Sequence record: PZ151149.1
Strand: one strand, 5' to 3'
DNA length: 64,000 nt
Origin: a phage
In this document: positions 2,325 to 27,865 of the stretch, piece by piece
How the letters are laid out: each line of letters opens with the position of its first letter
Numbering within the stretch: position 1 is the first letter of the stretch
Notes under the pieces: generated by a model
Told to the model about the DNA's origin: nothing
Seen by the model: the letters and a program-made list of their open reading frames with translations, nothing else
The model's database searches: none
Translations under genes and position numbers: made by a program

Positions 2325-3023
2325 CTAACCACGGGTATAGTGTTCCAGAACAACGGTCAGATGAATATATTCTAATAAATCTTTCCAAAAGTCAACATCT
2401 GGTTCTTCCGGCATACCGTTTTTCTTTGCCTCTTCACGCGCGAGTTTAACACGCTCGTAGAGATCTTTCAATTCTTCCCGCACATTATCAAAGGTTCTTT
2501 CTCCTAACTTACACGCTAAAATAGAAGAACGTCGCGCGAGAGGGAATTGTAGATCACCAGTCTGATAGATTTCAAGTAGCTGATAACCAACACGCAGAGC
2601 ATGAGAAAGGTCTTTCCAGTTACTGAAATACTTTTCAGATTTGGCTACCTGCTTTTTGAGATAACCGGAGCACCCCCACATACCAACATGATAGAATTTA
2701 TCGCGATGTGTTCGGATGTATTCCCATTCTCTGGAGGATTCAATCAACATGTTACTAGGCGCGTGCACCATGTCAATAGCGCCGATATCACCTTTACATG
2801 CCAGATTGATAAACCGTTTTAGACTGAACATATTAACGTCAATATCGTCTTTGGTGTTCTTGATACCTTGACCGCTAGTGCTTTGGTCATAGTGTTCTTT
2901 CATCGATCCTAAGATAATTTCTTTCGCAGTCGGAACAAAGATACCACGATAATCTTTATCGGAATTTTCAGTATCAAGGCCGTATAAGTGAGATCCGAAG
3001 ACCATTTTAACCATTGTATGCAT
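2325..3023 (-). CDS. nucleotidyltransferase-like protein (Pol-beta-type NTase fold)
   Basis: N-terminal GSHLYGLDTENSDKDYRG motif (GS..YG...SD.D) typical of predicted nucleotidyltransferases; start may be one of three nearby Met codons. Confidence 0.5.
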   Translation of the reverse strand: MHTMVKMVFGSHLYGLDTENSDKDYRGIFVPTAKEIILGSMKEHYDQSTSGQGIKNTKDDIDVNMFSLKRFINLACKGDIGAIDMVHAPSNMLIESSREWEYIRTHRDKFYHVGMWGCSGYLKKQVAKSEKYFSNWKDLSHALRVGYQLLEIYQTGDLQFPLARRSSILACKLGERTFDNVREELKDLYERVKLAREEAKKNGMPEEPDVDFWKDLLEYIHLTVVLEHYTRG

Positions 3024-3036
3024 AATTAAACCCTCA

Positions 3037-3567
3037 TTAGTATTTTACGTTACGTCGAACGCCTTTTCGAATCTGACAAATAGCAGACGGTGAAACATTA
3101 TATTTTCTTGCAAGTTCTACACCCTTCATATGGGGAGAAGATAAAATCTCTTCCACTTGGTCGTCGGTAAGTTTTGCGTTTCCGTGGTTCTCTCCCCAAT
3201 TGTTGTTTAATCCTTCTTCCTTCGCATGAACAAGATTTCGGGTATCTGTCGTCCATTCAAGATTATAAAGGTCATAGTTTTGTTTGTTTCCATCCTTATG
3301 ATTAACTACACGGTAGTTATTTGGATTCGGAATAAACGCAACCGCCATAGCTTTATGCATGTTCACGGTTTTTCTAAATCCATCCGGCTTATAACATACT
3401 GTAAATTTAGAATAACCAGTTTTACCATAAACACTAATATAATTTCCGGTCTCTGTATTTCTAACCCTACCATGAGAGCTAATCTCAAATTGAGTGTAGG
3501 GCAACAGCGCATCAATCACTTTCCATTCTTCGACAGGATGGTCATCACAATATCTTTTAATCATCAT
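3037..3567 (-). CDS. HNH homing endonuclease (NUMOD4-like N-terminus)
   Basis: Motif VNHKDGNKQNYDLYNLEW (HNH) and N-terminal W..I....YEIS..GRVRN pattern; sits after a terminator between conserved genes. Confidence 0.65.
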   Translation of the reverse strand: MMIKRYCDDHPVEEWKVIDALLPYTQFEISSHGRVRNTETGNYISVYGKTGYSKFTVCYKPDGFRKTVNMHKAMAVAFIPNPNNYRVVNHKDGNKQNYDLYNLEWTTDTRNLVHAKEEGLNNNWGENHGNAKLTDDQVEEILSSPHMKGVELARKYNVSPSAICQIRKGVRRNVKY

Positions 3568-4166: not shown

Positions 4167-4652
4167 TCAGTTGATACCTAAGCCAATGAAAATAGGTTGG
4201 TCTTCTACATTACCCATCCCAACACTAAGTCGATTTACTTCTAAAAACTGCAATACGCTGTCAGTAAATCCTCGCATGGTAGTATCTAGGATAAAGATTG
4301 TTTTGTCAAGACTACGACCTCGCCAAGTGATCGGATTCAGGAAAGTTCGGATCGAAGTGCAATCTACATTTGAAATGTTGATATTTTCACCGCGACCGCG
4401 TTCTCGGATCGTTTTGGCATGTTCCCGCGTTGTTGAAACGATAAAAACACTATATCCTTTTCGCGTATAATGGTCATATAACTTGATTGTAGCGTCTGTA
4501 TGCCCTGTTTGACGGCCTAAATTGATTGAGACGATGGAATCTAGGTCATCAGCAAAATTACGTCGCTTACGGCGTTCTATGATGCCATCTACGGCAGATA
4601 CACACGCAGCATAAATCAAATCTTTACTTTCTAATTTTACATCAATATTCAT
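4167..4652 (-). CDS. hypothetical protein (161 aa)
   Basis: ORF with ATG start; no recognisable motif. Confidence 0.5.
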   Translation of the reverse strand: MNIDVKLESKDLIYAACVSAVDGIIERRKRRNFADDLDSIVSINLGRQTGHTDATIKLYDHYTRKGYSVFIVSTTREHAKTIRERGRGENINISNVDCTSIRTFLNPITWRGRSLDKTIFILDTTMRGFTDSVLQFLEVNRLSVGMGNVEDQPIFIGLGIN

Positions 4653-4714
4653 GGTAAAGTCTCCAGTGAACGGGGAGAGATCCTTAGATTGTCTCCCCGT
4701 TGATGGTTAATATT

Positions 4715-5104
4715 TTATTTTGGATCTGGGTATTTGCTGTGTGGCAATTGTAGATGAGGACCATCTTTGAAACTAGACCAATCCCCACCCCATTCAACAG
4801 GAACACCCAATTCTCGACCAGCTTGTTTAAATGCATCAGCGATCATGCGGTAATATTTCATGTTCCATGTATCCTTATCTTTAGGATACGCTACAACGTC
4901 AACCGCGAAACCGTGAAGATGACGAGATTTCATAGTCTTAGATTTACCTTCCGCAACATATTTCTTTTGCGTTTCTAGACTACGCACACCTTCCGTAATA
5001 CCAAAATCGACCGGAGTCAGTTCTAATGCACGATGAACGACTTTTACCAGGTCTGGATGTACACCAACAAGCCGATCTTTGCTTCTTTGAGATAATTTAA
5101 ACAT
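4715..5104 (-). CDS. L-alanyl-D-glutamate peptidase endolysin (peptidase M15, T5 Lys-like)
   Basis: Close resemblance to remembered phage T5 endolysin N-terminus (V.P.L.KV..RALEL.P.DF.I..G.R) and SRHLHGFAVDV zinc-binding motif. Confidence 0.7.
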   Translation of the reverse strand: MFKLSQRSKDRLVGVHPDLVKVVHRALELTPVDFGITEGVRSLETQKKYVAEGKSKTMKSRHLHGFAVDVVAYPKDKDTWNMKYYRMIADAFKQAGRELGVPVEWGGDWSSFKDGPHLQLPHSKYPDPK

Positions 5105-5132
5105 TATTCACCCCCTTTGTGAGTGATAATAT

Positions 5133-5324
5133 TTAGATTCCTGTGATCCTGCATAGAGTTCTTGTATTAGCACCAATCAGGATCGCATTAACGGCAACCA
5201 TTCCCCAATCAACCCACGGATTATTATAAATGCTAAATCCGTTTGCTAGGCCAAATACAAGCATTCCGGTACACATACTCAGAGCAATAATCAACATCAC
5301 GGTAAAACCAAATGCAAATCTCAT
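5133..5324 (-). CDS. small membrane protein (63 aa)
   Basis: ORF, two hydrophobic segments. Confidence 0.4.
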   Translation of the reverse strand: MRFAFGFTVMLIIALSMCTGMLVFGLANGFSIYNNPWVDWGMVAVNAILIGANTRTLCRITGI

Positions 5325-5325
5325 A

Positions 5326-5541
5326 TTATTTTCCTTTTCTCTGTTTACGTTTATAAAAGTAATACATTACCTCATCGCGTCCGGTGATCCAACATGCTAG
5401 GGCGGTAAACAGGTTTACAATTCCCAACACACCTACGGATGCGGCGCTGTCAACAGACATAGGAACAGTAAAGGCCATAACTAACATAGCAACGCCACAA
5501 ATGACATTAAGCACCATTATAATAAGACCGAAGAAAACCAT
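5326..5541 (-). CDS. holin-like small membrane protein (71 aa from internal ATG; long form starts 5592)
   Basis: Two hydrophobic helices followed by basic tail YKRKQRKGK; ATG at 5541 lies 3 nt after upstream stop. Confidence 0.4.
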   Translation of the reverse strand: MVFFGLIIMVLNVICGVAMLVMAFTVPMSVDSAASVGVLGIVNLFTALACWITGRDEVMYYFYKRKQRKGK

Positions 5542-5543
5542 TG

Positions 5544-5723
5544 TCAATCCTCCGACACAAGAAAACCAACAATCACGCCAGTGATAAGACATGATGCACC
5601 GCTAATAAGACAACCCGCGCCAAGTGATTCCCACCATATAAGGGAAGCGACGATAACACAGAGTCCCCAGACTACAGCAATCACAACATAGGCAATGGTC
5701 GCCCAAAACATATATTTGTTCAT
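5544..5723 (-). CDS. small membrane protein (59 aa)
   Basis: ORF; ATGA start-stop overlap with upstream gene. Confidence 0.4.
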   Translation of the reverse strand: MNKYMFWATIAYVVIAVVWGLCVIVASLIWWESLGAGCLISGASCLITGVIVGFLVSED

Positions 5724-5908
5724 AATAAATCCCATTCACCAAACAAATAAGAAAAAAGCCATATCAACAGAAACGAGGCGATTGATCCAGCAAGCAAAAT
5801 GATATTAGAGAATCCGCCGTCTATCCAGCCAATCAAACAGAATACGCCAGTATAGAAGCACAACCCCAGCACAAAGCATACTATAATCAACCATAGATAA
5901 AACGCCAT
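5720..5908 (-). CDS. small membrane protein (62 aa)
   Basis: ORF, strongly hydrophobic. Confidence 0.4.
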   Translation of the reverse strand: MAFYLWLIIVCFVLGLCFYTGVFCLIGWIDGGFSNIILLAGSIASFLLIWLFSYLFGEWDLL

Positions 5909-5969
5909 AGAAAGCCCTCCAGTTAGCTAATTTAGTGCGGGTAGTACATTCCCCTACCCGCTTTGTTAA

Positions 5970-6128
5970 TCAACGTAGAGCTTGTTCTAAAGCGATTCCA
6001 AACCATCCGCAAACAACACCCATACAGACAGCGACAAGAAGACTCATTCTCTCTTTAGGGATCATTGCAATCATAACAACAACCATACAGAAAGCCATTA
6101 CCATTGCAGTTAACATTTGTTCAATCAT
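5970..6128 (-). CDS. small membrane protein (52 aa)
   Basis: Minus-strand ORF MIEQMLTAMVMAFCMVVVMIAMIP...; below the ORF-track size cutoff; track shows only an antisense ORF here. Confidence 0.35.
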   Translation of the reverse strand: MIEQMLTAMVMAFCMVVVMIAMIPKERMSLLVAVCMGVVCGWFGIALEQALR

Positions 6129-6130
6129 TA

Positions 6131-6445
6131 TCACACCTTCAAAGTCATAGACGCATAGACATTAATACCAGGCCAGTTAGGATCGCAATTATACTCAACA
6201 TCCCATAGATAAAGCGGTTTAGATGTATCAGCCAGGTTTTTAAAATCTTCTACCCACATTTCAAGGCTATATGAAGGATAAACTAGGCTATCATACCCTC
6301 CGTAACGTTGGCCTACTGGTCGGTCAGTAAAGACTACCTCAAGATCCGGTAATTCTTTTTCTAGGATAACCGCCAGCGCATAAATCAGGCGGTCTTCCTT
6401 GTTACGCTGCCGTAGGACCGTTGTCAGTTGGTTCGTCTGGTTCAC
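6131..6445 (-). CDS. hypothetical protein (about 104 aa)
   Basis: ORF; likely GTG start at 6445 with GGAGG RBS 9 nt upstream; overlaps 3' end of upstream gene. Confidence 0.4.
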   Translation of the reverse strand: MNQTNQLTTVLRQRNKEDRLIYALAVILEKELPDLEVVFTDRPVGQRYGGYDSLVYPSYSLEMWVEDFKNLADTSKPLYLWDVEYNCDPNWPGINVYASMTLKV

Positions 6446-6722
6446 TAGCAACTACCTCCACATTTTCACAGAATGAAATTTTCACAGACACAATTTTACC
6501 ATAAGTGAAGAATGAATATACATTATCGAGATATTCAACGTCACCTACAATCACATCAAACTGCGGATCAGCAACTGCCGCAACATATTCTACCAGTTCA
6601 TCAAGAGAATGCAACTTAATTTCATCAATTCGGCTGTATTTGGTTGCATCTTTGATCTTAAAACCACGTTCTTTCAGTTTATCGATCAGAATTTCGCGCG
6701 GAGTTTCAAACAGTTTACTCAT
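6402..6722 (-). CDS. hypothetical protein (106 aa)
   Basis: ORF with ATG start. Confidence 0.5.
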   Translation of the reverse strand: MSKLFETPREILIDKLKERGFKIKDATKYSRIDEIKLHSLDELVEYVAAVADPQFDVIVGDVEYLDNVYSFFTYGKIVSVKISFCENVEVVASEPDEPTDNGPTAA

Positions 6723-6740
6723 AATATAATCCTCACACAG

Positions 6741-6941
6741 TTAATCAGTATAGTCAATAATCTTGCACATTACAATTGAAAGAACAAAGACCGCAACCCA
6801 CATATAGATCCCAGCAATCAATGCTACTTCAATATCACAATATCCAAGAAGTACAACAGGAATAAAAACAAACATACAGACCAGCGCAATGAAACTAGCA
6901 TATACGCTCGAAAATATGATGGCACTATTATTAATTTTCAT
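6741..6941 (-). CDS. small membrane protein (66 aa)
   Basis: ORF, hydrophobic. Confidence 0.4.
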   Translation of the reverse strand: MKINNSAIIFSSVYASFIALVCMFVFIPVVLLGYCDIEVALIAGIYMWVAVFVLSIVMCKIIDYTD

Positions 6942-6942
6942 A

Positions 6943-7125
6943 TTAACAATCCTCGCGGTTTAAGTCAACTATAATTGCATACAGCATAATGAAAACACTA
7001 GCAGATCCTAGAATCAATGCACCGTCACATTTTGAAACGCGCTCATCAAAATGTAACATTATCCATCCGAGGATGTTAAAGGCGCAGACCGCGCCTATGT
7101 TCGCTAACCAATTAATCTTTTTCAT
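6943..7125 (-). CDS. small membrane protein (60 aa)
   Basis: ORF, hydrophobic. Confidence 0.4.
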   Translation of the reverse strand: MKKINWLANIGAVCAFNILGWIMLHFDERVSKCDGALILGSASVFIMLYAIIVDLNREDC

Positions 7126-7133
7126 AATATACC

Positions 7134-7460
7134 TTAGAAAGAAACAGTTTTCAAGAAATCCAGATTTTCAGTACCGAAAACAGAAAAGTAGTGTTTTCCT
7201 TTTTCGGTTTTAGAGAAAGCGATTGTCTTCTCTACATGGTGACGGAAGCCAGACAGACGATCACCCAGGTCAAGGCGGCAAGCGTAAGTAGTGCCGTTTT
7301 CGAAAGTAACCTCGATTTGAGTTTTGTCATATTCGCTTTCATAGGCTTTTGCTGCCGCGTCCTGTGCTTTACGCTCGAAGTCTTCGAAGTGGAATACTTC
7401 GTTTGCGTTAGCGAATACAGAAGATTCAGAGAAGATAACTTTAACAGATACTGGTTTCAT
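7134..7460 (-). CDS. hypothetical protein (108 aa)
   Basis: ORF preceded by conserved promoter-leader module and AGGAG RBS. Confidence 0.55.
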   Translation of the reverse strand: MKPVSVKVIFSESSVFANANEVFHFEDFERKAQDAAAKAYESEYDKTQIEVTFENGTTYACRLDLGDRLSGFRHHVEKTIAFSKTEKGKHYFSVFGTENLDFLKTVSF

Positions 7461-7502
7461 TTTGATACTCCTTAGTAGTTCGTGTTTCGTTTCGATGGGT
7501 GT

Positions 7503-7531
7503 ATTATGATATACACCCTATCGTGTGTCAA
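7503..7531 (-). promoter_or_regulatory. early promoter-leader module copy 2 (TTGACA-N17-CATAAT)
   Basis: Consensus hexamers plus leader ACACCCATCGAAACGAAACAC. Confidence 0.6.
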
Positions 7532-7539
7532 CAACTTTT

Positions 7540-7728
7540 TTAGTCTTTTTTCATAATTTCTAGGGCAGTTTCTACCGCACCTTTCCAACCTTCCCACATA
7601 ATGGACATAGTGATGAAGGTAAAGCACCCGCAGGAATCAGCCTTTTTAGAAATAAACCATTCTACAAACTCTTCGCTCATACCATGCTCTTTAGCGGATT
7701 CGCGTAATTGTTCAATTTTGTCTTCCAT
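7540..7728 (-). CDS. hypothetical protein (62 aa)
   Basis: ORF. Confidence 0.4.
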   Translation of the reverse strand: MEDKIEQLRESAKEHGMSEEFVEWFISKKADSCGCFTFITMSIMWEGWKGAVETALEIMKKD

Positions 7729-7737
7729 AGTATCACC

Positions 7738-7926
7738 TCAACACTTAACGTTATTCAATCGATTTTGAAAGTACATATAACAAGCATAGTTCTGTTTTGG
7801 TTGTACCGTATCAGATAGACACGCTTTTACAGCCTCGCGGTCCGATGGATCTACACCCTCAGCTTTAAGTAATGCTAAAATCTGGTTATAGCGTACTCTT
7901 AGTTGTACTAATGGTTTCTCCCCCAT
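7738..7926 (-). CDS. hypothetical protein (62 aa)
   Basis: ORF. Confidence 0.4.
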   Translation of the reverse strand: MGEKPLVQLRVRYNQILALLKAEGVDPSDREAVKACLSDTVQPKQNYACYMYFQNRLNNVKC

Positions 7927-7937
7927 AATATACCCTC

Positions 7938-8165
7938 TTACAGTTGATCAGCAATGTATGCGGTGCATTTGCGGAGTTTAGCCATAGCACCACCTTTCAT
8001 GTCGCTTGCGCCTACAATGTTCATGATCTCTAAGCGATCAGCCGGATTCAGTCTAGTAGCCCAGATCTGGTTAGCCAGTTCCATTTTACCCATCTGCGGT
8101 TCCATCTCAAACAGTTCACGCTCAAAGTCGATAATTTCTTTTGCTGCGTCTTTAAAGTTAATCAT
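7938..8165 (-). CDS. hypothetical protein (75 aa)
   Basis: ORF preceded by promoter-leader module. Confidence 0.5.
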   Translation of the reverse strand: MINFKDAAKEIIDFERELFEMEPQMGKMELANQIWATRLNPADRLEIMNIVGASDMKGGAMAKLRKCTAYIADQL

Positions 8166-8194
8166 TTTGATTCTCCCGTTTCGTTGATGGTTGT

Positions 8195-8223
8195 ATTGTA
8201 GGGGAGTTATCCTCCCCTGTCAA
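8195..8223 (-). promoter_or_regulatory. early promoter-leader module copy 3 (TTGACA-N17-TACAAT)
   Basis: Consensus hexamers plus leader ATCAACGAAACGGGAG. Confidence 0.6.
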
Positions 8224-8231
8224 CACTTTTA

Positions 8232-8417
8232 TCAGAAATATGCAATATAGTTTGCCAGTCCTACAGAGTCATCATTCGGCATTGCTTTTACTGCCAGTTC
8301 AAACCCTGCTTCAACTTTCTGTTTAGCGGATTCTTCGTTATAACCCCAAATTACCAGAATAGCTACTACGTTTTCTTTGCTTACTGCTTTCAGTGCTTTA
8401 GTGATGCGACGTGCCAT
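8232..8417 (-). CDS. hypothetical protein (61 aa)
   Basis: ORF preceded by promoter-leader module. Confidence 0.5.
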   Translation of the reverse strand: MARRITKALKAVSKENVVAILVIWGYNEESAKQKVEAGFELAVKAMPNDDSVGLANYIAYF

Positions 8418-8463
8418 AATTTGATTCTCCGTTTAAGAAAGTGTGTTTCGTTTCGATGGGTGT

Positions 8464-8492
8464 ATTATGCTATAGGCGGGGTCTGGTGTCAA
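8464..8492 (-). promoter_or_regulatory. early promoter-leader module copy 4 (TTGACA-N17-CATAAT)
   Basis: Consensus hexamers plus leader ACACCCATCGAAACGAAACACAC. Confidence 0.6.
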
Positions 8493-8520
8493 CAACTTTT
8501 TTCAAAAAAATTTAGGCAAT

Positions 8521-8548
8521 AAAAAAGCCACTCCGAAGAGTGGCTTAT
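8521..8548 (-). terminator. rho-independent terminator
   Basis: Hairpin AGCCACTC-TTCG-GAGTGGCT then TTTTTT on minus strand. Confidence 0.65.
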
Positions 8549-8695
8549 AGGGGAAGGTAGCGAATCTTCCTTGTCTCCAACCTGCTAGCGGCCTAGCAAG
8601 TGAATGCTTTAGCGTACCGGATCACCCCATACGCTGCAATAAATGCGGCTAGGTGACGTCCAAATCATTCTAACCGCGCTGTCTTTAGTTCACTA

Positions 8696-8914
8696 TTATT
8701 TATATCGCTTTCTCTCGCGACGTTTTTGATCTTCTTCCTTGATAGAGTTAAATGCATCAAAAAGACACATGACACTGATCAGGAACATAACCGTATTTTC
8801 TACGATATCCCACGGCTTCGCATCAGTACAGATCCCCCAAACGGTAAGAAATGCAAATAGTGCAGAAGAGATCACAAGCATGATACTTGCTAAGATATAA
8901 AAAGTCATCTTCAT
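8696..8914 (-). CDS. small membrane protein (72 aa)
   Basis: ORF, hydrophobic with basic C-terminus. Confidence 0.4.
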   Translation of the reverse strand: MKMTFYILASIMLVISSALFAFLTVWGICTDAKPWDIVENTVMFLISVMCLFDAFNSIKEEDQKRRERKRYK

Positions 8915-9093
8915 GGTTTTACCTCAATTCTTCGATATTCATCACACATCCACGCAGTAAGCAAGAATCCCAACACATAAGCAACAAAATACGTTAATGC
9001 TTCTTCTGGTTCCGTGCTATGTGTCATCAGTAAACCAGCGAGAACAGTCTTAATAATTACATTTAAAATAATTAGCCACGCAAATAGTTTCAT
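8911..9093 (-). CDS. small membrane protein (60 aa)
   Basis: ORF, hydrophobic. Confidence 0.4.
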   Translation of the reverse strand: MKLFAWLIILNVIIKTVLAGLLMTHSTEPEEALTYFVAYVLGFLLTAWMCDEYRRIEVKP

Positions 9094-9329
9094 CGTTTGC
9101 CCAATTTCGGCCGAGTCTTTTCAAACTTATACATTCCGTAACAATCTCGAATCATCCACGTAACAAGAGCACCAGTCAACACCGACAACACACAGAAGAA
9201 GTAAAACGGTCCGGTTGCATTATCAACATGAGCAAGCCATGTAAAGAAAACACATGCTAAGAATGTAAAGAACATCATAAAGCACAAGAAAGCGAAATAT
9301 TTTATACTACTCATAGAGCCACCATACAA
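9090..9329 (-). CDS. small membrane protein (79 aa)
   Basis: ORF, hydrophobic. Confidence 0.4.
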   Translation of the reverse strand: MYGGSMSSIKYFAFLCFMMFFTFLACVFFTWLAHVDNATGPFYFFCVLSVLTGALVTWMIRDCYGMYKFEKTRPKLGKR

Positions 9330-9417
9330 CAGATCATAAGAAAACCCAACGCAATAAGAATTGCATCAAATTTAGTGAACTCAGGTCCACCTATCAACAT
9401 CATTCGTTCCTGTTCAG

Positions 9418-9615
9418 TCATAGATCACAGATCCATCTAACAACACCACATACAGCGATCAGGAGTGTAGGACCACTTGAGAAGAAAACCAATGTACAAA
9501 AATCATCTAGTGTAATACCGGAATAACTACCGACTGCAATCACACCGATGATCAGACACAGAAAGAAAACAAATGCAATCAGAAACAAAGTATTACTAAA
9601 CAGTTTAGTGATCAT
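9418..9615 (-). CDS. small membrane protein (65 aa from ATG at 9615)
   Basis: ORF, hydrophobic. Confidence 0.4.
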   Translation of the reverse strand: MITKLFSNTLFLIAFVFFLCLIIGVIAVGSYSGITLDDFCTLVFFSSGPTLLIAVCGVVRWICDL

Positions 9616-9808
9616 TAGACACCCCACGACGGTCAATTTCAAAAACTTTCTTATCACCAACGAAGCATGTCACAACTGCCTCGTTGACTTCCGCAAATTG
9701 TTGTGTTACCCACTTAAGGTCAGATCGAAACAATGTTTTGTTAATAACAAATGTTTTACCGATCTTATCCTTACCCATAAATTTTGCGTTAACCATATCC
9801 AATTCCAT
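9605..9808 (-). CDS. hypothetical protein (67 aa)
   Basis: ORF. Confidence 0.4.
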   Translation of the reverse strand: MELDMVNAKFMGKDKIGKTFVINKTLFRSDLKWVTQQFAEVNEAVVTCFVGDKKVFEIDRRGVSNDH

Positions 9809-9817
9809 ATTATAGCC

Positions 9818-9976
9818 TTATTTGCTAATCGCTAAACCTAATCCGAAGAGAGCACCCGACGCTACAGTATACCCGAAAGTTTCAAATGCAGTAAAGATAT
9901 CTAAGCCACCAGCTAACAGAGTTGCAGTAAACAGAGTACCAGCTACGAACATAAAAGTTTTACCGATAAATTTCAT
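9818..9976 (-). CDS. small membrane protein (52 aa)
   Basis: Minus-strand ORF MKFIGKTFMFVAGTLF... with GGAG RBS and promoter-leader module; below track size cutoff. Confidence 0.4.
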   Translation of the reverse strand: MKFIGKTFMFVAGTLFTATLLAGGLDIFTAFETFGYTVASGALFGLGLAISK

Positions 9977-10007
9977 CTTGATTCTCCTTTCGTTTGTTTG
10001 TGGGGGT

Positions 10008-10036
10008 ATCTTACTACCCCCGTTTCATGTTGTCAA
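10008..10036 (-). promoter_or_regulatory. early promoter-leader module copy 5 (TTGACA-N17-TAAGAT)
   Basis: Consensus hexamers plus leader ACCCCCACAAACAAACGAAAGGAG. Confidence 0.55.
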
Positions 10037-10042
10037 CTGTTT

Positions 10043-10420
10043 TTAAGAAAATTTTACTTCGTCTACAATGTCTTTCATGACATTGATTTCCATTCCGGTC
10101 AGAACACGTTGGAACATGTGCTGCACATACGCTTTCAGGTATTCATTTGATGGCTTACTATCGAAAGTCTTTTTAGTGTAGTAGTCATCACCGAAAGCTA
10201 CTGTAATTACATTTTCGTCGTCGTTCCAAGCGATATAAGCAAATTTGCCGTTATCCCAGAAGCGAGCACTAATTGCTACTTTTGTTGAATCGAATCCTAC
10301 TTCGCTGTGAGATTCAAGAACTACTTGCGTACCAGTTTCTTTATGAATGTAGTAGCGGGATACTAAGTCAAAGTTACGGGTGTAGTGACATTCGAATTTA
10401 TCTTTAAACATCATCATCAT
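10043..10420 (-). CDS. hypothetical protein (125 aa)
   Basis: ORF from ATG at 10420 with GGAG RBS downstream of promoter module; track ORF start lies inside the promoter. Confidence 0.5.
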   Translation of the reverse strand: MMMMFKDKFECHYTRNFDLVSRYYIHKETGTQVVLESHSEVGFDSTKVAISARFWDNGKFAYIAWNDDENVITVAFGDDYYTKKTFDSKPSNEYLKAYVQHMFQRVLTGMEINVMKDIVDEVKFS

Positions 10421-10457
10421 TTTGATTCTCCTAAGTGTGTTTCGTTTCGATATGTGC

Positions 10458-10486
10458 ATTATGCTATAGTCGTTTATGGTTGTCAA
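10458..10486 (-). promoter_or_regulatory. early promoter-leader module copy 6 (TTGACA-N17-CATAAT)
   Basis: Consensus hexamers plus leader ATCGAAACGAAACACAC. Confidence 0.6.
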
Positions 10487-10488
10487 CA

Positions 10489-10521
10489 ACTAAAAACAAA
10501 AAACCCCGAAAAATTTTCGGG
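10489..10521 (-). terminator. rho-independent terminator after the 57B-position gene
   Basis: Hairpin CCCCGAAAA-TTTTCGGGG followed by TTTTTTGTTTTT on minus strand. Confidence 0.6.
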
Positions 10522-10529
10522 GTATAAAA

Positions 10530-10994
10530 TTACAGTTTGGTCGTCCACTCCAGGTCTAGATCTTCGACATACTCATGAGATCGGACAATCTCTAAATCGA
10601 ACTCTAGGTCAGTGCCAAATTTACGCGCACCAACATCATAAGAAAGCGTGATATGCGGTACATATTCAGGATAATCCCACGTCGCACCTAAAGCAGTGCC
10701 GATATCGTGTCTGAATTGCATGTAGTCGCTTTCAAATGCCAACACAAGTGCATTAGTACCGGATTGAGTTTCAAACACTTTCAAATGGCATAGAGAGCCT
10801 AAGAACTTCTCCCCTTCTTCTGGGATAAACGGAACATAAACACGAGAATATAAGATAGTGCTATGCAGTTTATCACGAGTAACGGCATTAGGCAGATCGT
10901 AGAACTCCTGCAATTTTTCAATGCGGTCTAGTGTATCCTCAGTGAATTTAACCGCCGCATATGTACCTTTAACGGATTCTCGAAACGGGGTCAT
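10530..10994 (-). CDS. hypothetical protein at the T4 gene 57B position (154 aa)
   Basis: ORF with GGAGG RBS; position immediately downstream of 57A as in T4; sequence identity to 57B not verified. Confidence 0.5.
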   Translation of the reverse strand: MTPFRESVKGTYAAVKFTEDTLDRIEKLQEFYDLPNAVTRDKLHSTILYSRVYVPFIPEEGEKFLGSLCHLKVFETQSGTNALVLAFESDYMQFRHDIGTALGATWDYPEYVPHITLSYDVGARKFGTDLEFDLEIVRSHEYVEDLDLEWTTKL

Positions 10995-11961: not shown

Positions 11962-12552
11962 TTACTTTCTAAATGCAGGGTGCATAGCTTTAATACCTTC
12001 CACTCGCTGACGATCCGCCGCCTGAATTGCTGGGCGAGGAACGATCAGTTGACCATCACGTTCAATGCTCATTGTTTTAAATGGAAGAATTGCAGTACAC
12101 ACCAGAGATTCATGCATGTCATCGGTGTATGTTAACTCAAGTTCCCCCAATTGTGAACACCAACAACCATAAAAGTTAAAGGTGCATACAATGTTACGGC
12201 GTTCATTGTCCAGCATGTGAACTTGAACGGCTTCCGGCATTGAATCCTTCCACGCGGTGGAGTTACCGTTATTGTAGTCTACTATAGAAAGCATCCATGT
12301 GTAAAGGTTTAGATAGCTTTCCAAATGCTCATCGACAATAAACCGGACTACCAACGGGTCAAACTCTACATGACTGGAAGGATAATCAGCGACCGCCAAA
12401 CCATATTGACCAGCAACTTGTTTAGTCGGTGGAATGGTTATAGCCGGAAGTGTAACACCTTGACAGTTTAAAGTAAAGCCTTTTGTTAGTTGACCATCTG
12501 GAATGGCAATCTGCCAGTTGCTAGGGTTAGCATAGTTAAAGAGATTGGACAT
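11962..12552 (-). CDS. 3: tail completion / sheath stabilizer protein gp3-like
   Basis: Position between genes 1 and 2 as in T4; size close to gp3; identity not checked residue by residue. Confidence 0.6.
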   Translation of the reverse strand: MSNLFNYANPSNWQIAIPDGQLTKGFTLNCQGVTLPAITIPPTKQVAGQYGLAVADYPSSHVEFDPLVVRFIVDEHLESYLNLYTWMLSIVDYNNGNSTAWKDSMPEAVQVHMLDNERRNIVCTFNFYGCWCSQLGELELTYTDDMHESLVCTAILPFKTMSIERDGQLIVPRPAIQAADRQRVEGIKAMHPAFRK

Positions 12553-12582
12553 TACGATTCCTTAAATGAAAATATTTATCAA

Positions 12583-13116
12583 CTAAAAATTTAAACTAGC
12601 ATAATCTCCAAAATGTTCCTTTGCTGCTTCGTCATAAGCCTTTGCAGCATCAACTTCGTCAAGAAAGACGCCCAAATGGACCTTTCTACGATTGATTGAT
12701 ATCTGAGCACACCATTTGTTATTCTGTGTTCTAATCACTCCTTTATACTTACTCTTACAACCATCAAGTTTTCCGCGATTGAATGCATTTTCCTGAGAAG
12801 TGGATTCTCTCAAGTTATCCGGTGCATTATTTTCTCGGTTTCTATCTATATGGTCGATCATTTTAACTTGCGTACCATGTTCAAGATACCAAACAACCCT
12901 ATGAACTTTAATGACCAAAGAATAGCCATCACTGCGCCAAAACTTAAAACATAGATAACCTCGACTATTTTTATAAACTTTAACCGGGTCTCCTGCCTTA
13001 TACCATCGACCATTCTTTCCACTATCTTTCAAATGGTACAATATACCATTAACGTGTTTATACTTATCTCTAATTTCTTTTTGTGTAAAATCATCCCACA
13101 TCTTAAACCCAGACAT
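12583..13116 (-). CDS. HNH homing endonuclease with C-terminal AP2 DNA-binding domain
   Basis: HNH motif IDHIDRNRENNAPDNLRESTSQENAFN; AP2-like YKGVIRTQNNKWCAQISINRRKVHLGVFLDEVDAAKAYDEAA; inserted between genes 3 and 2. Confidence 0.7.
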   Translation of the reverse strand: MSGFKMWDDFTQKEIRDKYKHVNGILYHLKDSGKNGRWYKAGDPVKVYKNSRGYLCFKFWRSDGYSLVIKVHRVVWYLEHGTQVKMIDHIDRNRENNAPDNLRESTSQENAFNRGKLDGCKSKYKGVIRTQNNKWCAQISINRRKVHLGVFLDEVDAAKAYDEAAKEHFGDYASLNF

Positions 13117-13152
13117 ACATTTTCTCCTGATAATATTATTAATAACAACATC

Positions 13153-13182
13153 AATCTAACATATCTAGTATATAATGTCAAT
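13153..13182 (-). promoter_or_regulatory. possible sigma70-like promoter (TTGACA-N18-TAGATT) for the AP2-HNH gene
   Basis: Hexamers on minus strand; 18-nt spacer. Confidence 0.35.
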
Positions 13183-13232
13183 TGTCGCTTTGCGACGTGC
13201 CGTAGGCACTGACTACTTTTTAACCGAAACAA

Positions 13233-13267
13233 ATTTTCTATATTCTAAAGATCTTTCTTCGTTTTGG
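13233..13267. repeat. intergenic repeat copy A (ATTTTCTATATTCTAAAGATCTTTCTTCGTTTTGG)
   Basis: About 33 of 35 nt identical to 50186..50220; contains palindrome AAAGATCTTT. Confidence 0.6.
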
Positions 13268-13336
13268 TTATGTTTTAACCAATAACTATATTTTTATACA
13301 GTAATAAATAAAACTGGTACTATACGAGGACTTCTT

Positions 13337-13591
13337 ATGACAGAAGACATTTTGTTAAAACTCTATGATCGTTTGGATAACGAATTAGCAACATTGCGGG
13401 GTGAAGTTCTCTATTTGTCTAAATGCAATACAGATCTGATTAAGCAGATTGCCGAAAGGGATGACCAAATAAAATCCCTTTCAGGCGCATTACGTGATCG
13501 CGACAAGGCATTAGAGATTTTACAGCGTGTAACCAATAAAGAAGAGTTGAAAGACTTTCTACATGGTTATGCTCACGCCATCGATCTATAA
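13337..13591 (+). CDS. hypothetical coiled-coil protein (84 aa)
   Basis: ORF with GAGGA RBS; heptad-like charged sequence; followed by strong terminator. Confidence 0.5.
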   Translation: MTEDILLKLYDRLDNELATLRGEVLYLSKCNTDLIKQIAERDDQIKSLSGALRDRDKALEILQRVTNKEELKDFLHGYAHAIDL

Positions 13592-13592
13592 T

Positions 13593-13622
13593 AAAAAGCC
13601 CGTCAATGACGGGCTTAATTTT
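13593..13622. terminator. bidirectional rho-independent terminator
   Basis: Hairpin AGCCCGTC-AATG-ACGGGCT flanked by A-run and T-rich run; convergent genes on both sides. Confidence 0.6.
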
Positions 13623-14649
13623 AATATGTATCAGCTAATTTAATTATGTTATCAAGTTCCGTGATTGGTAAAGTTTCTGTGTATCCATCTTTCAACATGG
13701 ATTTATCAACAACGCCACAATGATAAGTTCTCTTTATTTCCTTTTCAAGTTCCCACGGAATCCAGCCATCAACACTTTGTTTGACGTAAACAAGTTTGTG
13801 AACAAACTTAGATTTCTGCATATGTTGTTTCATTCTGGTTTCCGGTAATTCATTGGTTACACCAAACTTTATAAATTTATCATCTAACGTCTGGATATAA
13901 AAATATCCCATCTCAGATGGACGATAGCCAGAAGAACTACATTTCGGACACCCTTTAGCATTTCTGTTGAACGTACAATATCTTACAGAAAATTCGGCGT
14001 CATGTTTTGTACATTTAAGTTTTATCCATGAATTTGCAGTACCTATCCATTCACCATCGACACCTATATATTCATACCCTAACTTTTTACATTTATCTTC
14101 TATTCTAGATAGTGCATCTTCCACGGGAACGACATATTCCGTCTTAAATTGTTCAGCCGCACATTTCTTACAACCACATGTACCATGATTTTTAAAATCA
14201 AAGAACTTTGTATTCTTCCAAATATGGTCATGTTTCTTGCATCTAAGAATCATCTTAGTAATTTGTGATTTCCAGCCACCAACAAATCCCAAAAATTCAT
14301 AATCAAGATCTTTACATTTTTCTTCAATGAATTTGGTTGCTTCATCTTCTGTCATAACTCCCCTACATTGAGGGCAACCAACAATAACCTTTTTAGCATA
14401 GAAACTATTACTGGAAACATCATAGACAGTTCCATGCTTATTGCATTGGATAACAGATCTAGTCAATTTTCCTTTCCATTCTCCAGTAAATCCTAAGAAT
14501 GTATGGTCGACAAGTTTACATCTTTCAATAACTTTATCTGCAAACTCTCTAGGAGATTTTGTTACCTTGTTTACTCTGTATTCTATTTCTTCCGGTTGAC
14601 GAAGATCATAAACGTGGGGATTTCTCCCCACGGAATTAATATTAAGCAT
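13621..14649 (-). CDS. putative endonuclease-like protein: three tandem Cys-containing repeats plus C-terminal GIY-YIG-like (T5orf172-like) motif
   Basis: Three roughly 85-aa repeats each with FLGF.GEWKG...C.KH...W...GC..C pattern; C-terminal GYFYIQ...KFGVT...R..H resembles a GIY-YIG core; ATG at 14649 just after gene 2 stop. Confidence 0.5.
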   Translation of the reverse strand: MLNINSVGRNPHVYDLRQPEEIEYRVNKVTKSPREFADKVIERCKLVDHTFLGFTGEWKGKLTRSVIQCNKHGTVYDVSSNSFYAKKVIVGCPQCRGVMTEDEATKFIEEKCKDLDYEFLGFVGGWKSQITKMILRCKKHDHIWKNTKFFDFKNHGTCGCKKCAAEQFKTEYVVPVEDALSRIEDKCKKLGYEYIGVDGEWIGTANSWIKLKCTKHDAEFSVRYCTFNRNAKGCPKCSSSGYRPSEMGYFYIQTLDDKFIKFGVTNELPETRMKQHMQKSKFVHKLVYVKQSVDGWIPWELEKEIKRTYHCGVVDKSMLKDGYTETLPITELDNIIKLADTY

Positions 14650-15463
14650 CTTTCCACACCTTCCTTGCATCATAGTTTTTACCTTTAGAAACAAATTTAT
14701 ATGTGTTAAGGTAGATAATATTGCTCCAGTCTTTCGGGCTAATCTCAACAAGTTTTGTTTTAATGTGTCCCGGTAGATATGCTTTGATCATGTGGTCACT
14801 ACCACGCATACCTTTTACATCACTCCATTTAATCTTCAAGCGTGTTTTATTGCTCAAGGTAGGAGTAGATGCATATTGCTTTAAAAGTGCTTCCAGAAAC
14901 TGCTGACGGGCTTTAGGCGTTACATAGTGTAAGTTAAGACCCAGCATTACAGTATTACCCGCCTTTGTCTTAGAATCACCCAGACAAATGATCAGCGGGA
15001 AAACATCCCAATATGGCAAAGTATCTTTATACTTCGCATCATACATAAAGGTATAGATTCGCCCTACTTGCGGTTTTACAATCTGGTGTCCCTTTATTCC
15101 AGCTTTTATTGTTTTAGTAAACCACTCCTGTGATTTTTCTTTAGGACGACTCTTTGATACAGCACGCATAGACGCACGAAAATCATTAATCATCATCATT
15201 GCGCGTTGCTGCTTATTGAGACCCTTTGCACCTTTCCCTTTTAGTTTTTCAACTTCTATTGCTGTTTTAATTTCGCTGGCATAACGAGACATACTTTTAG
15301 TGAAAGTCGCATAGGCTATTCCCTTAGAATCTGCAAATGCTTTAGCTGTCATTCCTTTGGCTTTTGCTTTCGCAAATTCTACACCCAATTCGACCCACTG
15401 TTTAGACTTTCGCTTTTGGGGAGACGGCTTTTCGTCTTCTGTGATTATTTCAAATACGCTCAT
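14642..15463 (-). CDS. 2: DNA end protector protein gp2
   Basis: 273 aa from ATG at 15463 (T4 gp2 is 274 aa); basic N-terminus; position between gene 3 side and gene 4 as in T4. Confidence 0.7.
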   Translation of the reverse strand: MSVFEIITEDEKPSPQKRKSKQWVELGVEFAKAKAKGMTAKAFADSKGIAYATFTKSMSRYASEIKTAIEVEKLKGKGAKGLNKQQRAMMMINDFRASMRAVSKSRPKEKSQEWFTKTIKAGIKGHQIVKPQVGRIYTFMYDAKYKDTLPYWDVFPLIICLGDSKTKAGNTVMLGLNLHYVTPKARQQFLEALLKQYASTPTLSNKTRLKIKWSDVKGMRGSDHMIKAYLPGHIKTKLVEISPKDWSNIIYLNTYKFVSKGKNYDARKVWKDA

Positions 15464-15497
15464 AATATTGTCCTCTATGTTTATGTTTGTTACACAC

Positions 15498-15526
15498 TTG
15501 ACAATCCTCTTTGCTATTGCTAAAAT
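15498..15526 (+). promoter_or_regulatory. sigma70-like promoter (TTGACA-N17-TAAAAT) for the HNH-NUMOD3 gene
   Basis: Hexamers with 17-nt spacer about 65 nt upstream of ATG. Confidence 0.5.
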
Positions 15527-15589
15527 GCAGACGAAAATAAACAGCGATACTTGTTGATAAATATCATTATAACACAGGAGGAACATTAG

Positions 15590-16612
15590 ATGCAAGATAT
15601 TAAGAACAAAATTTTGATGCAGTTTCCGAATGCAGATATCAAGTATTTAGAAAAGTATCTAGAAATTTGTGCAAACCCAGATAAGGATGGGGAATTAGAG
15701 AGGCATCATATTCTACCAAAATCAATTTGGAAGGAATATGAAGACCTTAAAATTCATGATTTTAATGCTGTTCACTTGAACACCGTTCGTCATATGATGG
15801 CACACTACTATTTCAGTAAAGCAACAAATTCCATTTGGAAGTCTGTTGTTATGATGTTTAATACCAGAATTGATATTATGAAGGAATTGCCAGAAGATAT
15901 TGTGTTGAAACTTGCTGGTATATCAGAAGAGGCAAAGCGAAAACATGTATACACGGAAGAATCTAGACTGAAAATGTCGGAATCACAAAAACGTTTCATG
16001 GCTTCTCTTGATGAAGAAGAATTAAAACGTCGCCATAAGAAAAGAACTGATTCCGTTAAAGAACATTTTAGAAACTTGAGCGATGAAGAACGAGAAAGAA
16101 AGTATAAAGAACGTGGCAAGAAAATATCAAAGGCGTTAAGTAATAGATCAGAGGAAAAACTTAAATTACGAAGAGAAAGGCTTCTACAAACTATAAACTC
16201 AAAGTCAGACGAAGAAAAACAAAGAATCGCCAAACTACTTTCAGATTCACAAAAACCGAAAGAAACATGGGGAAAATTTGATGAGTTATATGCATTATGG
16301 ATTGATCTGAATATGCCGGGTCAATATGTATTCAAGCGCGAGGCCATTAAACGTGGATACCCAGATAGGTCATATGATTACATCGTTAAAGAAATGAAAA
16401 ATAAGTACATAAAGGAGAATGGAAACGACATAATAAAATTAAATCCCAGAAAAAATTCTGGTGTCTGGGTATATTATGACGAAATATATAAGCTGTGGAA
16501 AGAAAATGGTATGCCTAGCGATAGAAAAACAAGAAAAATAGCGGTCGAGAATGGTTATCCCGACCAATGCTATCAAACTATAGTAAAAGACTTTAAGAAC
16601 TCACTTATTTAA
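15590..16612 (+). CDS. HNH homing endonuclease with NUMOD3-like repeats
   Basis: HNH motif ERHHILPKS...N.V.L....H..H; several S/T-EE-x-[RK]-x-K-x-S repeats resembling NUMOD3; opposite strand to flanking genes 2 and 4; own sigma70-like promoter and AGGAGG RBS. Confidence 0.7.
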   Translation: MQDIKNKILMQFPNADIKYLEKYLEICANPDKDGELERHHILPKSIWKEYEDLKIHDFNAVHLNTVRHMMAHYYFSKATNSIWKSVVMMFNTRIDIMKELPEDIVLKLAGISEEAKRKHVYTEESRLKMSESQKRFMASLDEEELKRRHKKRTDSVKEHFRNLSDEERERKYKERGKKISKALSNRSEEKLKLRRERLLQTINSKSDEEKQRIAKLLSDSQKPKETWGKFDELYALWIDLNMPGQYVFKREAIKRGYPDRSYDYIVKEMKNKYIKENGNDIIKLNPRKNSGVWVYYDEIYKLWKENGMPSDRKTRKIAVENGYPDQCYQTIVKDFKNSLI

Positions 16613-17074
16613 ACCTTTAAAACCGAACACCTTTTTTAATGTGTGTTCGGTTATGATTTTAAATTCCATATTATGTTTTTTACACAATGCTACTGCCGCT
16701 GCCCACTTTTCGGTATTTTTCGTCCACGTCCAAGCCTCCATCATATAACGCTGCTTTGTTTTAGTCGTTAATCGCTTTGGCTTTTCTGGTGGTCTAGTCT
16801 CTTTGGCTGGCTTAATTTCCCATAAATGCTCTTTTCCATCATCAAACTTAACATAAACATCAACAAAATATCTGTGACGCTTACCGTCTGTTGATGAATT
16901 GTAAGGAATTACAACGGTCTCAGATCCCCATTTAACCACATGAGGATTACGGTCACACCATTTAAAAACATGCAATTCCCAGCTTGAACGGTATGTGATT
17001 TTCCGTATATCCCCTTTATACTTTTCCTTATTCTCAGGAACATACTTGCCCTTATAAGTGTTAGATCCTCCCAT
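16601..17074 (-). CDS. 4: head completion protein gp4
   Basis: Size (157 aa) and divergent position next to gene 53 as in T4. Confidence 0.75.
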   Translation of the reverse strand: MGGSNTYKGKYVPENKEKYKGDIRKITYRSSWELHVFKWCDRNPHVVKWGSETVVIPYNSSTDGKRHRYFVDVYVKFDDGKEHLWEIKPAKETRPPEKPKRLTTKTKQRYMMEAWTWTKNTEKWAAAVALCKKHNMEFKIITEHTLKKVFGFKGLNK

Positions 17075-17089
17075 TTTAGCACCCTTTAT

Positions 17090-17097
17090 TATAAATA
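17090..17097 (+). promoter_or_regulatory. T4-type late promoter TATAAATA upstream of gene 53
   Basis: Exact TATAAATA 33 nt before ATG. Confidence 0.6.
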
Positions 17098-17129
17098 CAT
17101 AATACTATTTATCAATTGAGGGTGCTAAA

Positions 17130-17684
17130 ATGCTCTTTTCTTTCTTCCCTGCCATTGAATACAACGGCAAGATGATTACTGACATTGTGCGCAATTACCG
17201 CGCATATTTCAATGCAATAATTTCTGATTATAACATACAAACATATTACATTCAAGGTAGTCCACGACCGGAACAGGTTGCATATGAAGTATACGGAAAC
17301 CAGCAACTTTATTGGATCTTGCTGATGCTTAATGACGTATACGATCCGTTTCATGACTGGATCACCGATCAAGAGACAGCATACGAATCAGCCGAACAAC
17401 GATATGCAAACGTAGGAGGAAATCAAGTATTATACCACGTTGATATTGACGGAAACAAGTATTGGAATCTTACCGAATATCCGAAAGGATCAAGCAATTG
17501 GTATGATAAAGGGGATATTCATCATCGTCATTTGCAGTTTCATGGTGCACTGTCGGCGGTAGACACACTGGAAGATGCGATCCTCCGCAACGAGGAACGA
17601 CGCAAGATCAAGATCATAGATCCTACACAAATTAAACAATTTATTAACGCATTCATTCGAGAAATGGAAAAGGCTGATGTGTAA
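17130..17684 (+). CDS. 53: baseplate wedge protein gp53
   Basis: Synteny and size (184 aa vs 196 in T4). Confidence 0.8.
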   Translation: MLFSFFPAIEYNGKMITDIVRNYRAYFNAIISDYNIQTYYIQGSPRPEQVAYEVYGNQQLYWILLMLNDVYDPFHDWITDQETAYESAEQRYANVGGNQVLYHVDIDGNKYWNLTEYPKGSSNWYDKGDIHHRHLQFHGALSAVDTLEDAILRNEERRKIKIIDPTQIKQFINAFIREMEKADV

Positions 17685-17695
17685 GGTGATTAATT

Positions 17696-19495: not shown

Positions 19496-19500
19496 GGTAA

Positions 19501-26335: not shown

Positions 26336-26348
26336 GTATATGATTTTA

Positions 26349-26376
26349 AAGCCAATTCGTGAGAATTGGCTTTTTC
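26349..26376 (+). terminator. rho-independent terminator after gene 8
   Basis: Hairpin AGCCAATTC-GTGA-GAATTGGCT then TTTTTC. Confidence 0.65.
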
Positions 26377-26387
26377 TATTTTGGGTG

Positions 26388-26415: not shown

Positions 26416-26444
26416 GCTCACATCTAAACAACGGAGGATAAATT

Positions 26445-27861: not shown

Positions 27862-27865
27862 TTAT

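Follow-up and report, generated by a model that had tools for sequence, protein, structure and literature searches.

Between positions 5133 and 9976 of the phage sequence PZ151149.1 (64,000 nucleotides (nt), the whole of which was analysed and is called the window here) lie 21 closely packed genes, every one of them on the minus strand; 13 (m1–m13) encode small hydrophobic proteins and eight (s1–s7 and dmd) encode soluble ones (Table 1). The interval runs from the final base of the m1 stop codon at 5133 to the start of m13 at 9976, with an M15 endolysin gene on one side and the s8/57B/57A/gene 1 block on the other. The window belongs to the genus Krischvirus (the RB49/Phi1/JSE-like “pseudo-T-even” phages, Straboviridae): 59 phage records match positions 5100–10000 at 92–97% nt identity, the top match being Shigella phage SSG23 (96.4%), and the structural region matches the same genus. 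Hydrophobic open reading frames (ORFs) were called by a 19-residue Kyte-Doolittle (KD) scan with a threshold of 1.6. A first-pass annotation had proposed a dense array of at least twelve small membrane ORFs in under 5 kb; the scan bears this out with 13, of which 12 fall within the proposed range of 50–80 amino acids (aa). These 12 are 52–74 aa long and the remaining one, m11, is 36 aa.

The hydrophobic genes are grouped as m1–m5 (5133–6128), m6–m7 (6741–7125), m8–m12 (8696–9615) and m13 (9818–9976); since the soluble ORFs and dmd are interleaved with them, the array consists of three clusters and is not one unbroken run. Several ATGA stop/start overlaps had been noted in the first pass and five were confirmed, four along m12>m11>m10>m9>m8 and one at m4>m3. 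The dmd gene overlaps m12 by 11 nt, and the other junctions inside the membrane clusters are of 1–2 nt, with the exception of a 61 nt gap between m5 and m4. Such junctions are built for translational coupling. The end of m1 is 28 nt from the start of the endolysin gene and the two are co-directional. The coding strand of the membrane clusters is rich in T (37–39%, compared to 25% in the soluble block), which accounts for the AT-skew inversions seen at 5–7 kb and 9–10 kb.

Around 11 of the 13 proteins are two-helix hairpins and one or two are single-pass. The transmembrane (TM) prediction that the first-pass annotation had called for was already available for the RB49 orthologues and agrees: TMHMM lists 20 TM-positive “novel” ORFs across the RB49 genome, 13 of them in ORF103–124 and 12 of these 13 with two TM segments (Nolan et al. 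2006, Additional File 2). In that listing the m6 locus is represented by two genes (ORF110 and ORF111) and ORF105 (m3) is not included. AlphaFold2 folds both m2 and m8 as helix-turn-helix hairpins, at a predicted local distance difference test (pLDDT) score of 78–79. The loops are of 3–12 residues, no extramembrane segment exceeds about 20 aa, so that there is almost no extramembrane mass, and the grand average of hydropathy (GRAVY) reaches 1.7. Lysine and arginine are found in the N-terminal tails, the loops are neutral or acidic, and the C-terminal tails of m2, m8 and m10 each carry 7–8 basic residues; from this distribution of charge, hairpins with both termini in the cytoplasm (N-in/C-in) are predicted. 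The mini-proteins would thus insert in the inner membrane, mostly in the N-in/C-in orientation, with the short loops exposed to the periplasm.

Conservation, selection and distribution

Twelve of the 13 ORFs have a full-length or near-full-length match, almost always ungapped, in all 12 of the Krischvirus loci compared; the other, m6, is missing from seven of the 12 and is replaced by another allele in several. In the annotated frame, the ratio of non-synonymous to synonymous differences (pN/pS, Nei-Gojobori) is 0.07–0.39 for 11 of the 13, the outliers being m12 at 0.59 and m6 at 0.53 (from three sequences only). The same-strand off-frames give values of about 1–3. The range of the hydrophobic ORFs takes in the values of the comparators endolysin (0.27) and dmd (0.29). 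Furthermore, the whole array is syntenic in metagenomic contigs of a sister lineage, with protein identities of 67–97% and pN/pS mostly of 0.07–0.5. In m2 the second TM segment and the basic tail do not vary, nor do the loop motif and the tail in m8, so that the constraint is sequence-specific. A Shine-Dalgarno motif is present at most starts, and the starts without one are coupled by overlap. This pattern of substitution and conservation marks the 13 ORFs as real genes under purifying selection; the first-pass annotation would have been undermined had relatives not shared these ORFs, and they are instead conserved and selected in Krischvirus and in its sister lineage. It is highly probable that they encode genuine inner-membrane proteins, expressed, in all probability, early.

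That these ORFs might be chance hydrophobic frames in T-rich DNA, or decaying pseudogenes, has to be considered given that they are short, that the coding strand is indeed T-rich and that a few of them are left out by some pipelines. This is exceedingly improbable. On the coding strand, 12 ATG-started TM ORFs of 50–100 aa are observed, whereas 300 Markov shuffles give 0.62 ± 0.73 (maximum 4), the purifying selection is specific to the annotated frame, the frames are intact in 12 genomes and the sister lineage, and most have a Shine-Dalgarno or coupled start. The selection, sister-lineage and shuffle data effectively refute an artefact. Within the window, small TM genes make up 13 of the 21 genes here and 1 of about 79 elsewhere (Fisher p = 4e-10). 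The sole other small two-TM ORF called in the 64 kb is at 51080–51277 on the minus strand (65 aa), in a minus-strand island of the late region.

Real variability is confined to one place, the m6 locus (window 6741–6941; positions 2845–3239 of locus L007). The m6 allele is found in some genomes, whereas others have ORF110, which aligns weakly to m6, together with an extra hairpin gene, ORF111 (two TM), which is annotated in shortened form in W115. In Whisky, a 101-aa ORF is annotated across the positions of m4 and m3 (locus L005, 1703–2008) and the m4 alignment has a 1-nt gap, from either a variant or a sequencing error. The m10 gene of Makalu_001 and SSG23 is one codon shorter at its end, which again could be a real variant or a sequencing error.

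Each of the 13 proteins matches, over its full length, its own small PHROG of function-unknown proteins, and the 13 PHROGs are all different. A single expanded paralogous family was therefore rejected, all-against-all Smith-Waterman (SW) comparison with shuffled controls giving a maximum Z of 3.6. None of the 13 reaches a Pfam gathering score. When all 13 were compared by tblastn with 50,697 phage records, matches were found only in 59 Krischvirus genomes, and in all 59; by these searches, the array is restricted to Krischvirus and the sister metagenomic lineage. Among 5.8e9 proteins the only relatives found are at ≥79% identity for m2 and ≥82% for m8, and an exhaustive phmmer search of 1.84e9 representatives with m10 returned its own clusters only. 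Fold searches of viral predicted structures with the m2 and m8 models gave the Phi1 orthologue as the only significant match, the rest being generic hairpins at E ≥ 0.36, and were therefore uninformative. T4 Imm, Sp, 61.1, 61.4, e.2–e.4 and gp40 were all rejected as homologues (SW Z < 4).

The array is denser than the T4 early region, as the first-pass annotation had suggested. The equivalent T4 interval, from vs.8 to 57B, holds four membrane candidates among 17 coding sequences (e.2, e.3, e.4 and trna.4), of which only trna.4 is a small hairpin. By ORF tiling confined to the gene-1 strand, with loci anchored on gene 1, the 10 kb downstream of gene 1 contain 0–5 small TM genes in 36 other T4-like loci and 13–14 in two Krischvirus sequences. 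Smaller clusters of small TM ORFs do occur elsewhere in T4-like genomes (for example Aeh1 ORF281–292) and the phenomenon is therefore quantitative, not unique. T4 trna.4 (61 aa, two TM) and e.2/e.3/e.4 are likewise uncharacterised membrane ORFs, lying between the lysozyme gene and 57B, and most T4-like genera have one conserved trna.4-type hairpin of about 60 aa at +1.5 to +2.7 kb from gene 1, which is the position of m13. However, a profile made from 24 proteins of the trna.4 type in other T4-like genera goes unmatched here: every protein of the window scores below 7 bits. The idea that m13 is a diverged trna.4 was rejected, its profile score being −0.5.

It had also been supposed that most of these ORFs escape standard size cutoffs, which for the most part is incorrect. 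The complete set is annotated in RB49, JSE, phiS, SSG23 and other records, and in W115 the label “putative membrane protein” is given to 11 of the ORFs; single pipelines omit m4, m11 or m12. As annotation the feature is already known, because ORF103–124 have been in GenBank since the RB49 deposit and the TM predictions were published in 2006, so that both have been public since 2003–2006. In the literature searched, no paper was found that discusses the cluster or tests any member; where “membrane” occurs in Arbiol et al. 2010 (PMC2839356), ultrafiltration membranes are meant. The records of JEP8, AV108, ELT3 and KMB43 label one small ORF here “tail length tape-measure protein”, almost certainly a mis-annotation.

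Predicted early transcription signals

The first-pass placement of the array in an early region is supported by predicted sigma70-type early promoters upstream, with no late promoter predicted. Five near-consensus promoters, TTGACA-17-(C/T)ATAAT, were found on the minus strand, four of them inside a repeated 70–80 nt cassette of the PeSL (early-promoter/stem-loop) type, and all five coincide with published early-promoter predictions for RB49 (Table 1). Promoter and terminator activity has been demonstrated for other PeSL cassettes of RB49 and phi1 (Arbiol et al. 2010, PMC2839356). In RB49 the stretch from 54 to 61 kb has no predicted late promoter, and the single minus-strand match to the late-promoter motif TATAAATA lies at 8697–8704, inside the 3' end of m8. 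From these promoter and terminator signals, host sigma70 RNA polymerase would transcribe the membrane genes right after infection as two operons. One would begin at the promoter at 10036, take in m13-dmd-m12-m11-m10-m9-m8 and stop at the terminator at 8546; the other would begin at the promoter at 7531 and take in s3-m7-m6-s2-s1-m5-m4-m3-m2-m1, probably reading into the endolysin gene.

The array shares with the PeSL and ORFan cassettes described by Arbiol et al. (2010) the phage group, the early-promoter/stem-loop repeats and the genus-restricted ORFans. It differs from that model in that the membrane genes lack individual PeSL flanks and sit in long, translationally coupled operons; the repeats delimit the operons as well as two soluble genes, s7 and s8, and the polymorphic m6/ORF110/ORF111 locus has no PeSL. 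Gene content is almost invariant in the 59 genomes, and the stretch is therefore far less plastic than the cases on which the PeSL model is based.

Between the m8 stop codon and the terminator is a 149-nt non-coding stretch (8547–8695, minus strand) that is strongly structured (z = −3.25) and 95–99% identical in 16 of 17 related loci, including the sister lineage; contig L017 ends short of the site. It is more conserved than the flanking coding DNA, the adjacent m8 having a pS of about 0.5 in the sister lineage, and in the alignment 22 of 182 columns vary, with one GC-to-AU double change. This stretch is a candidate for a conserved 3' untranslated element or a small RNA; no Rfam RNA family was found in 4500–10700. 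A GC-rich hairpin without a T-run (GCGGGUAG...CUACCCGC, −18.3 kcal/mol) lies in the m5–m4 gap at 5937–5961 on the minus strand, and could be an attenuator, an RNA-stability element or the remnant of a PeSL stem-loop that has no promoter.

Table 1. Genes and transcription signals of the array and its flanks, in window coordinates.
Feature	Position	Strand	RB49 counterpart	pN/pS	Description
endolysin	4715..5104	−			M15 L-alanyl-D-glutamate peptidase; downstream neighbour of m1–m5 (cluster A); PF13539 in relatives
m1	5133..5324	−	ORF103	0.21	63 aa; KD peak 2.36; two TM by TMHMM in RB49; PHROG 15016
m2	5326..5541	−	ORF104	0.09	71 aa two-helix hairpin, strongly basic C-tail; AlphaFold2 hairpin, pLDDT 78
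m3	5544..5723	−	ORF105	0.23	59 aa hairpin; ATGA overlap with m4
m4	5720..5908	−	ORF106	0.39	62 aa hairpin
m5	5970..6128	−	ORF107		52 aa hairpin; two allele classes about 16% apart (nt)
s1 + s2	6131–6445 + 6402–6722	−		0.07 + 0.09	Overlapping soluble ORFs of about 105 aa within the array; highly constrained
m6	6741..6941	−	ORF110 (diverged allele)		66 aa hairpin; SW Z about 9 to ORF110
m7	6943..7125	−	ORF112	0.35	60 aa hairpin
soluble block	7134..8417	−			s3 (LPD25 domain), s4 (gp55.3-like), s5, s6, s7 (DUF7421); Pfam matches and PHROGs
m8	8696..8914	−	ORF118	0.13	72 aa hairpin, basic C-tail; final gene of the predicted dmd operon
m9	8911..9093	−	ORF119	0.26	60 aa hairpin
m10	9090..9314	−	ORF120	0.09	74 aa hairpin, basic C-tail
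m11	9311..9421	−	ORF121	0.34	36 aa, single C-terminal TM segment
m12	9418..9615	−	ORF122	0.59	65 aa hairpin; alleles most divergent in the array
dmd	9605..9808	−			Antitoxin against host RnlA/LsoA; PF17587 at 51 bits; 43% identity to T4 Dmd
m13	9818..9976	−	ORF124	0.07	52 aa, hydrophobic; leads the predicted dmd operon
early promoter	10486–10458	−	Pe:60694		Near-consensus sigma70
early promoter	10036–10008	−	Pe:60244		TTGACA-17-TAAGAT, in PeSL repeat 9973–10055; predicted to drive m13 to m8
early promoter (s7)	8492–8464	−	Pe:58699		In PeSL repeat 8429–8511
early promoter (s6-s5-s4)	8223–8195	−	Pe:58430		
early promoter	7531–7503	−	Pe:57746		In PeSL repeat 7478–7548; predicted to drive s3 to m1 and probably endolysin
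PeSL-type repeats	7478–7548; 8429–8511; 9973–10055; 10433–10503				
intrinsic terminator	8546–8525	−	TransTerm site between ORF117 and ORF118		Strong (fold); ends the predicted dmd operon

Possible functions of the mini-proteins

A functional class can be inferred from the architecture, timing and neighbourhood of the genes. By analogy with known small membrane proteins, the array may well encode a battery of specific inner-membrane binders, a reading in which we have moderate confidence. The proteins are too small for catalysis and have almost no extramembrane mass, and action would therefore be only via contacts with membrane components, each protein binding another membrane-embedded partner. 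Each might then neutralise or redirect a different inner-membrane target; this is drawn from analogy and is the least certain step. On the phage side, the candidate target is the DNA-delivery apparatus that superinfecting phages insert into the membrane; on the host side, the candidates are transporters, envelope proteins and defence proteins anchored in the membrane. The array would serve superinfection exclusion, envelope takeover or counter-defence, not lysis.

The closest comparison is with T4 Imm, an 83-aa early protein that reportedly prevents superinfection by binding to the tape-measure protein of the incoming phage (bioRxiv 10.64898/2026.03.06.709160). Like Imm (PF14373), the mini-proteins are small, predicted to be early and of the inner membrane, with at least two hydrophobic helices (KD, TMHMM and AlphaFold2); in the same KD scan Imm itself gives two hydrophobic peaks, at 4–22 and 39–57, and in the preprint four helices are fitted, with helices 2–4 as the hydrophobic core (bioRxiv 10.64898/2026.03.06.709160). 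None of the 13, however, matches PF14373 at E ≤ 1, and all have SW Z < 4 against Imm. T4 Spackle has a cleavable signal peptide and a periplasmic helical domain of about 75 aa that inhibits the gp5 lysozyme, and no such extramembrane domain is present here. SW comparison of Sp with the 13 proteins gives Z ≤ 2, and its lone weak tblastn match falls inside gene 41. The suggestion in the first-pass annotation that these proteins are candidates for exclusion, immunity or takeover thus stands in so far as their size and two-helix architecture match Imm, but none is a member of the Imm, Spackle or holin families.

Other small membrane proteins offer looser parallels. HK97 gp15, for which the Imm preprint (bioRxiv 10.64898/2026.03.06.709160) cites a proposed block of genome entry through the tape-measure protein, and other phage exclusion proteins are likewise small and of the inner membrane, but they are prophage-expressed single genes without homology to the proteins here, where 13 genes are found together in a virulent phage. 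AcrZ, MgrB, MgtS and T4 Ac (51 aa, and thought to interfere with AcrAB-TolC) are membrane mini-proteins that bind larger membrane proteins; they are mostly single-pass and host-encoded, and the likeness is a functional analogy without homology.

Several observations weigh against a battery of specific binders. No similarity to characterised proteins was found in the Pfam, SW or fold searches, and all 13 fall outside the Imm and Spackle families. No expression or functional studies of these ORFs were found in the literature searched. The lack of imm and sp at their T4 syntenic positions in RB49 counts in favour of the proposal, but the absence of imm was assessed only at that site, across about 163 kb of Krischvirus-type DNA and among a sample of 60 of 989 Imm-positive records, not genome-wide; tblastn with T4 Imm gave nothing at E ≤ 10 in the 163 kb, in which the positive control, Dmd, was found. 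Thirteen different factors for exclusion or takeover are also many, where T4 manages with Imm and Sp. Gene content that is nearly invariant genus-wide is less typical of fast-turnover conflict genes. Finally, cluster A adjoins the endolysin gene, and m2, m8 and m10 look holin-like.

The neighbourhood is one of conflict genes: dmd is in the operon, 57B/Acb1 is adjacent and s3 encodes an LPD25 domain. With Acb1 on one side and dmd inside, the array is flanked by known counter-defence genes. The alleles are mosaic: from one gene to the next, pS varies between 0.05 and 0.54. A narrower version of the proposal, which we regard as unlikely, is that the array is a toolkit of membrane-embedded inhibitors in which each hairpin acts against a different membrane-anchored host anti-phage effector or sensor; the TM effectors of CBASS-, Rex-, Abi- or Zorya-type systems are possible targets. 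The early promoters, the co-operonic dmd, the allelic mosaicism and the sequence-specific constraint are in line with such a toolkit. If true, it would extend the flanking soluble counter-defence (dmd and 57B/Acb1) into the membrane as a new anti-defence class. The 57B homologue is at 10530–10994, and its orthologue in relatives carries PF23474 (Acb1, an anti-CBASS nuclease family).

A role in lysis, with cluster A (m1–m5) and/or m2, m8 and m10 acting as class II holins or pinholins, antiholins or modulators of lysis timing, is suggested by the position of m1 only 28 nt ahead of a co-directional endolysin gene that has no promoter of its own and is apparently read from the upstream unit. Class II holins and pinholins such as S68 of phage 21 have about 70 aa, two TM segments and a basic cytoplasmic C-tail, and m2, m8 and m10, alone among the 13, have this classic look, with two TM segments followed by a C-tail with 7–8 Lys/Arg. 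There are also faint Pfam matches to holin superfamily III (m2, E 0.058; m10, E 0.03), but these are below threshold, at 14.8 bits for m10 with Phage_holin_3_6 (gathering score 28.4) and 14.0 bits for m2 with Phage_holin_3_5 (27), so that no family membership is indicated. Furthermore, RB49 encodes a canonical T4-type holin gene t (RB49p254) and the sister lineage encodes an RI antiholin (PF24205); the mini-proteins are not the holin, because RB49 already has gene t. Control also appears to be early rather than late: the promoters are early, no TATAAATA late promoter is suitably placed, and a holin expressed early would kill the infection. No lysis cassette from outside Krischvirus shares these genes. 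Lysis is consequently an improbable function for the array.

It is possible instead that the mini-proteins oligomerise and depolarise or permeabilise the inner membrane in the manner of type I toxins, giving an early metabolic arrest of the host. That they are so strongly hydrophobic (with a GRAVY of up to 1.7) and have so little sequence outside the membrane is consistent with this, and many T4 early ORFs are toxic when cloned. The invariant non-hydrophobic motifs, and purifying selection on the loops and tails, point rather to specific interactions; 13 unrelated sequences would be an unparsimonious route to one generic effect, and phage replication needs an energised membrane. There is little probability that such a shut-off is the function, and less again that the proteins are structural, as membrane anchors or scaffolds for sites of replication, head assembly or DNA packaging at the inner membrane. 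Head assembly and replication in T4 are membrane-associated, and the content of the array is genus-wide and core-like. Yet no other T4-like genus has the array, although they all use the same machinery for assembly and replication, and the array genes belong to an accessory early region that also holds dmd and Acb1 rather than to core modules. Depolarisation and scaffold roles, though possible, are both a poorer fit than specific binding to the genus restriction and to the sequence-specific constraint.

These 13 conserved, selected and probably early-expressed mini-proteins are about 5% of the gene count of a genus that is used in therapy cocktails, and could affect the behaviour of RB49-like phages in mixed cocktails, for example by mutual exclusion. 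The array is a compact test bed for manipulation of the inner membrane by virulent phages, be it exclusion of competitors, disarming of membrane defences or rewiring of transport, and the genes, which are cheap to synthesise and express singly, are a good experimental target. Specific targets for even a few of the proteins, if this proposal is true, would add new mechanisms beside Imm, Sp and a handful of others.

Neighbouring genes and repeats

RB49, over 12000–30000, is without the b-gt/42/imm/imm.1 block between uvsX and gene 43. It is also without the dmd-61.4-sp block after gene 41, and dmd is relocated into the membrane-gene array.

Among the soluble genes, s7 (8232–8417, 61 aa, DUF7421 at 136 bits) has 73–78% nt identity to genes of many T1-like Drexlerviridae siphophages. 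Its protein does not vary, the sister lineage included, a pattern that suggests horizontal transfer between coliphage families that are not related. Elsewhere in the window, an intergenic-looking motif of 38–57 nt (AAGATCTTTCTTCGTTTTGATCATAATTTAATCA...) is repeated at 13233–13289, 50052–50089 and 50186–50242, at sites about 37 kb apart, and may be regulatory.

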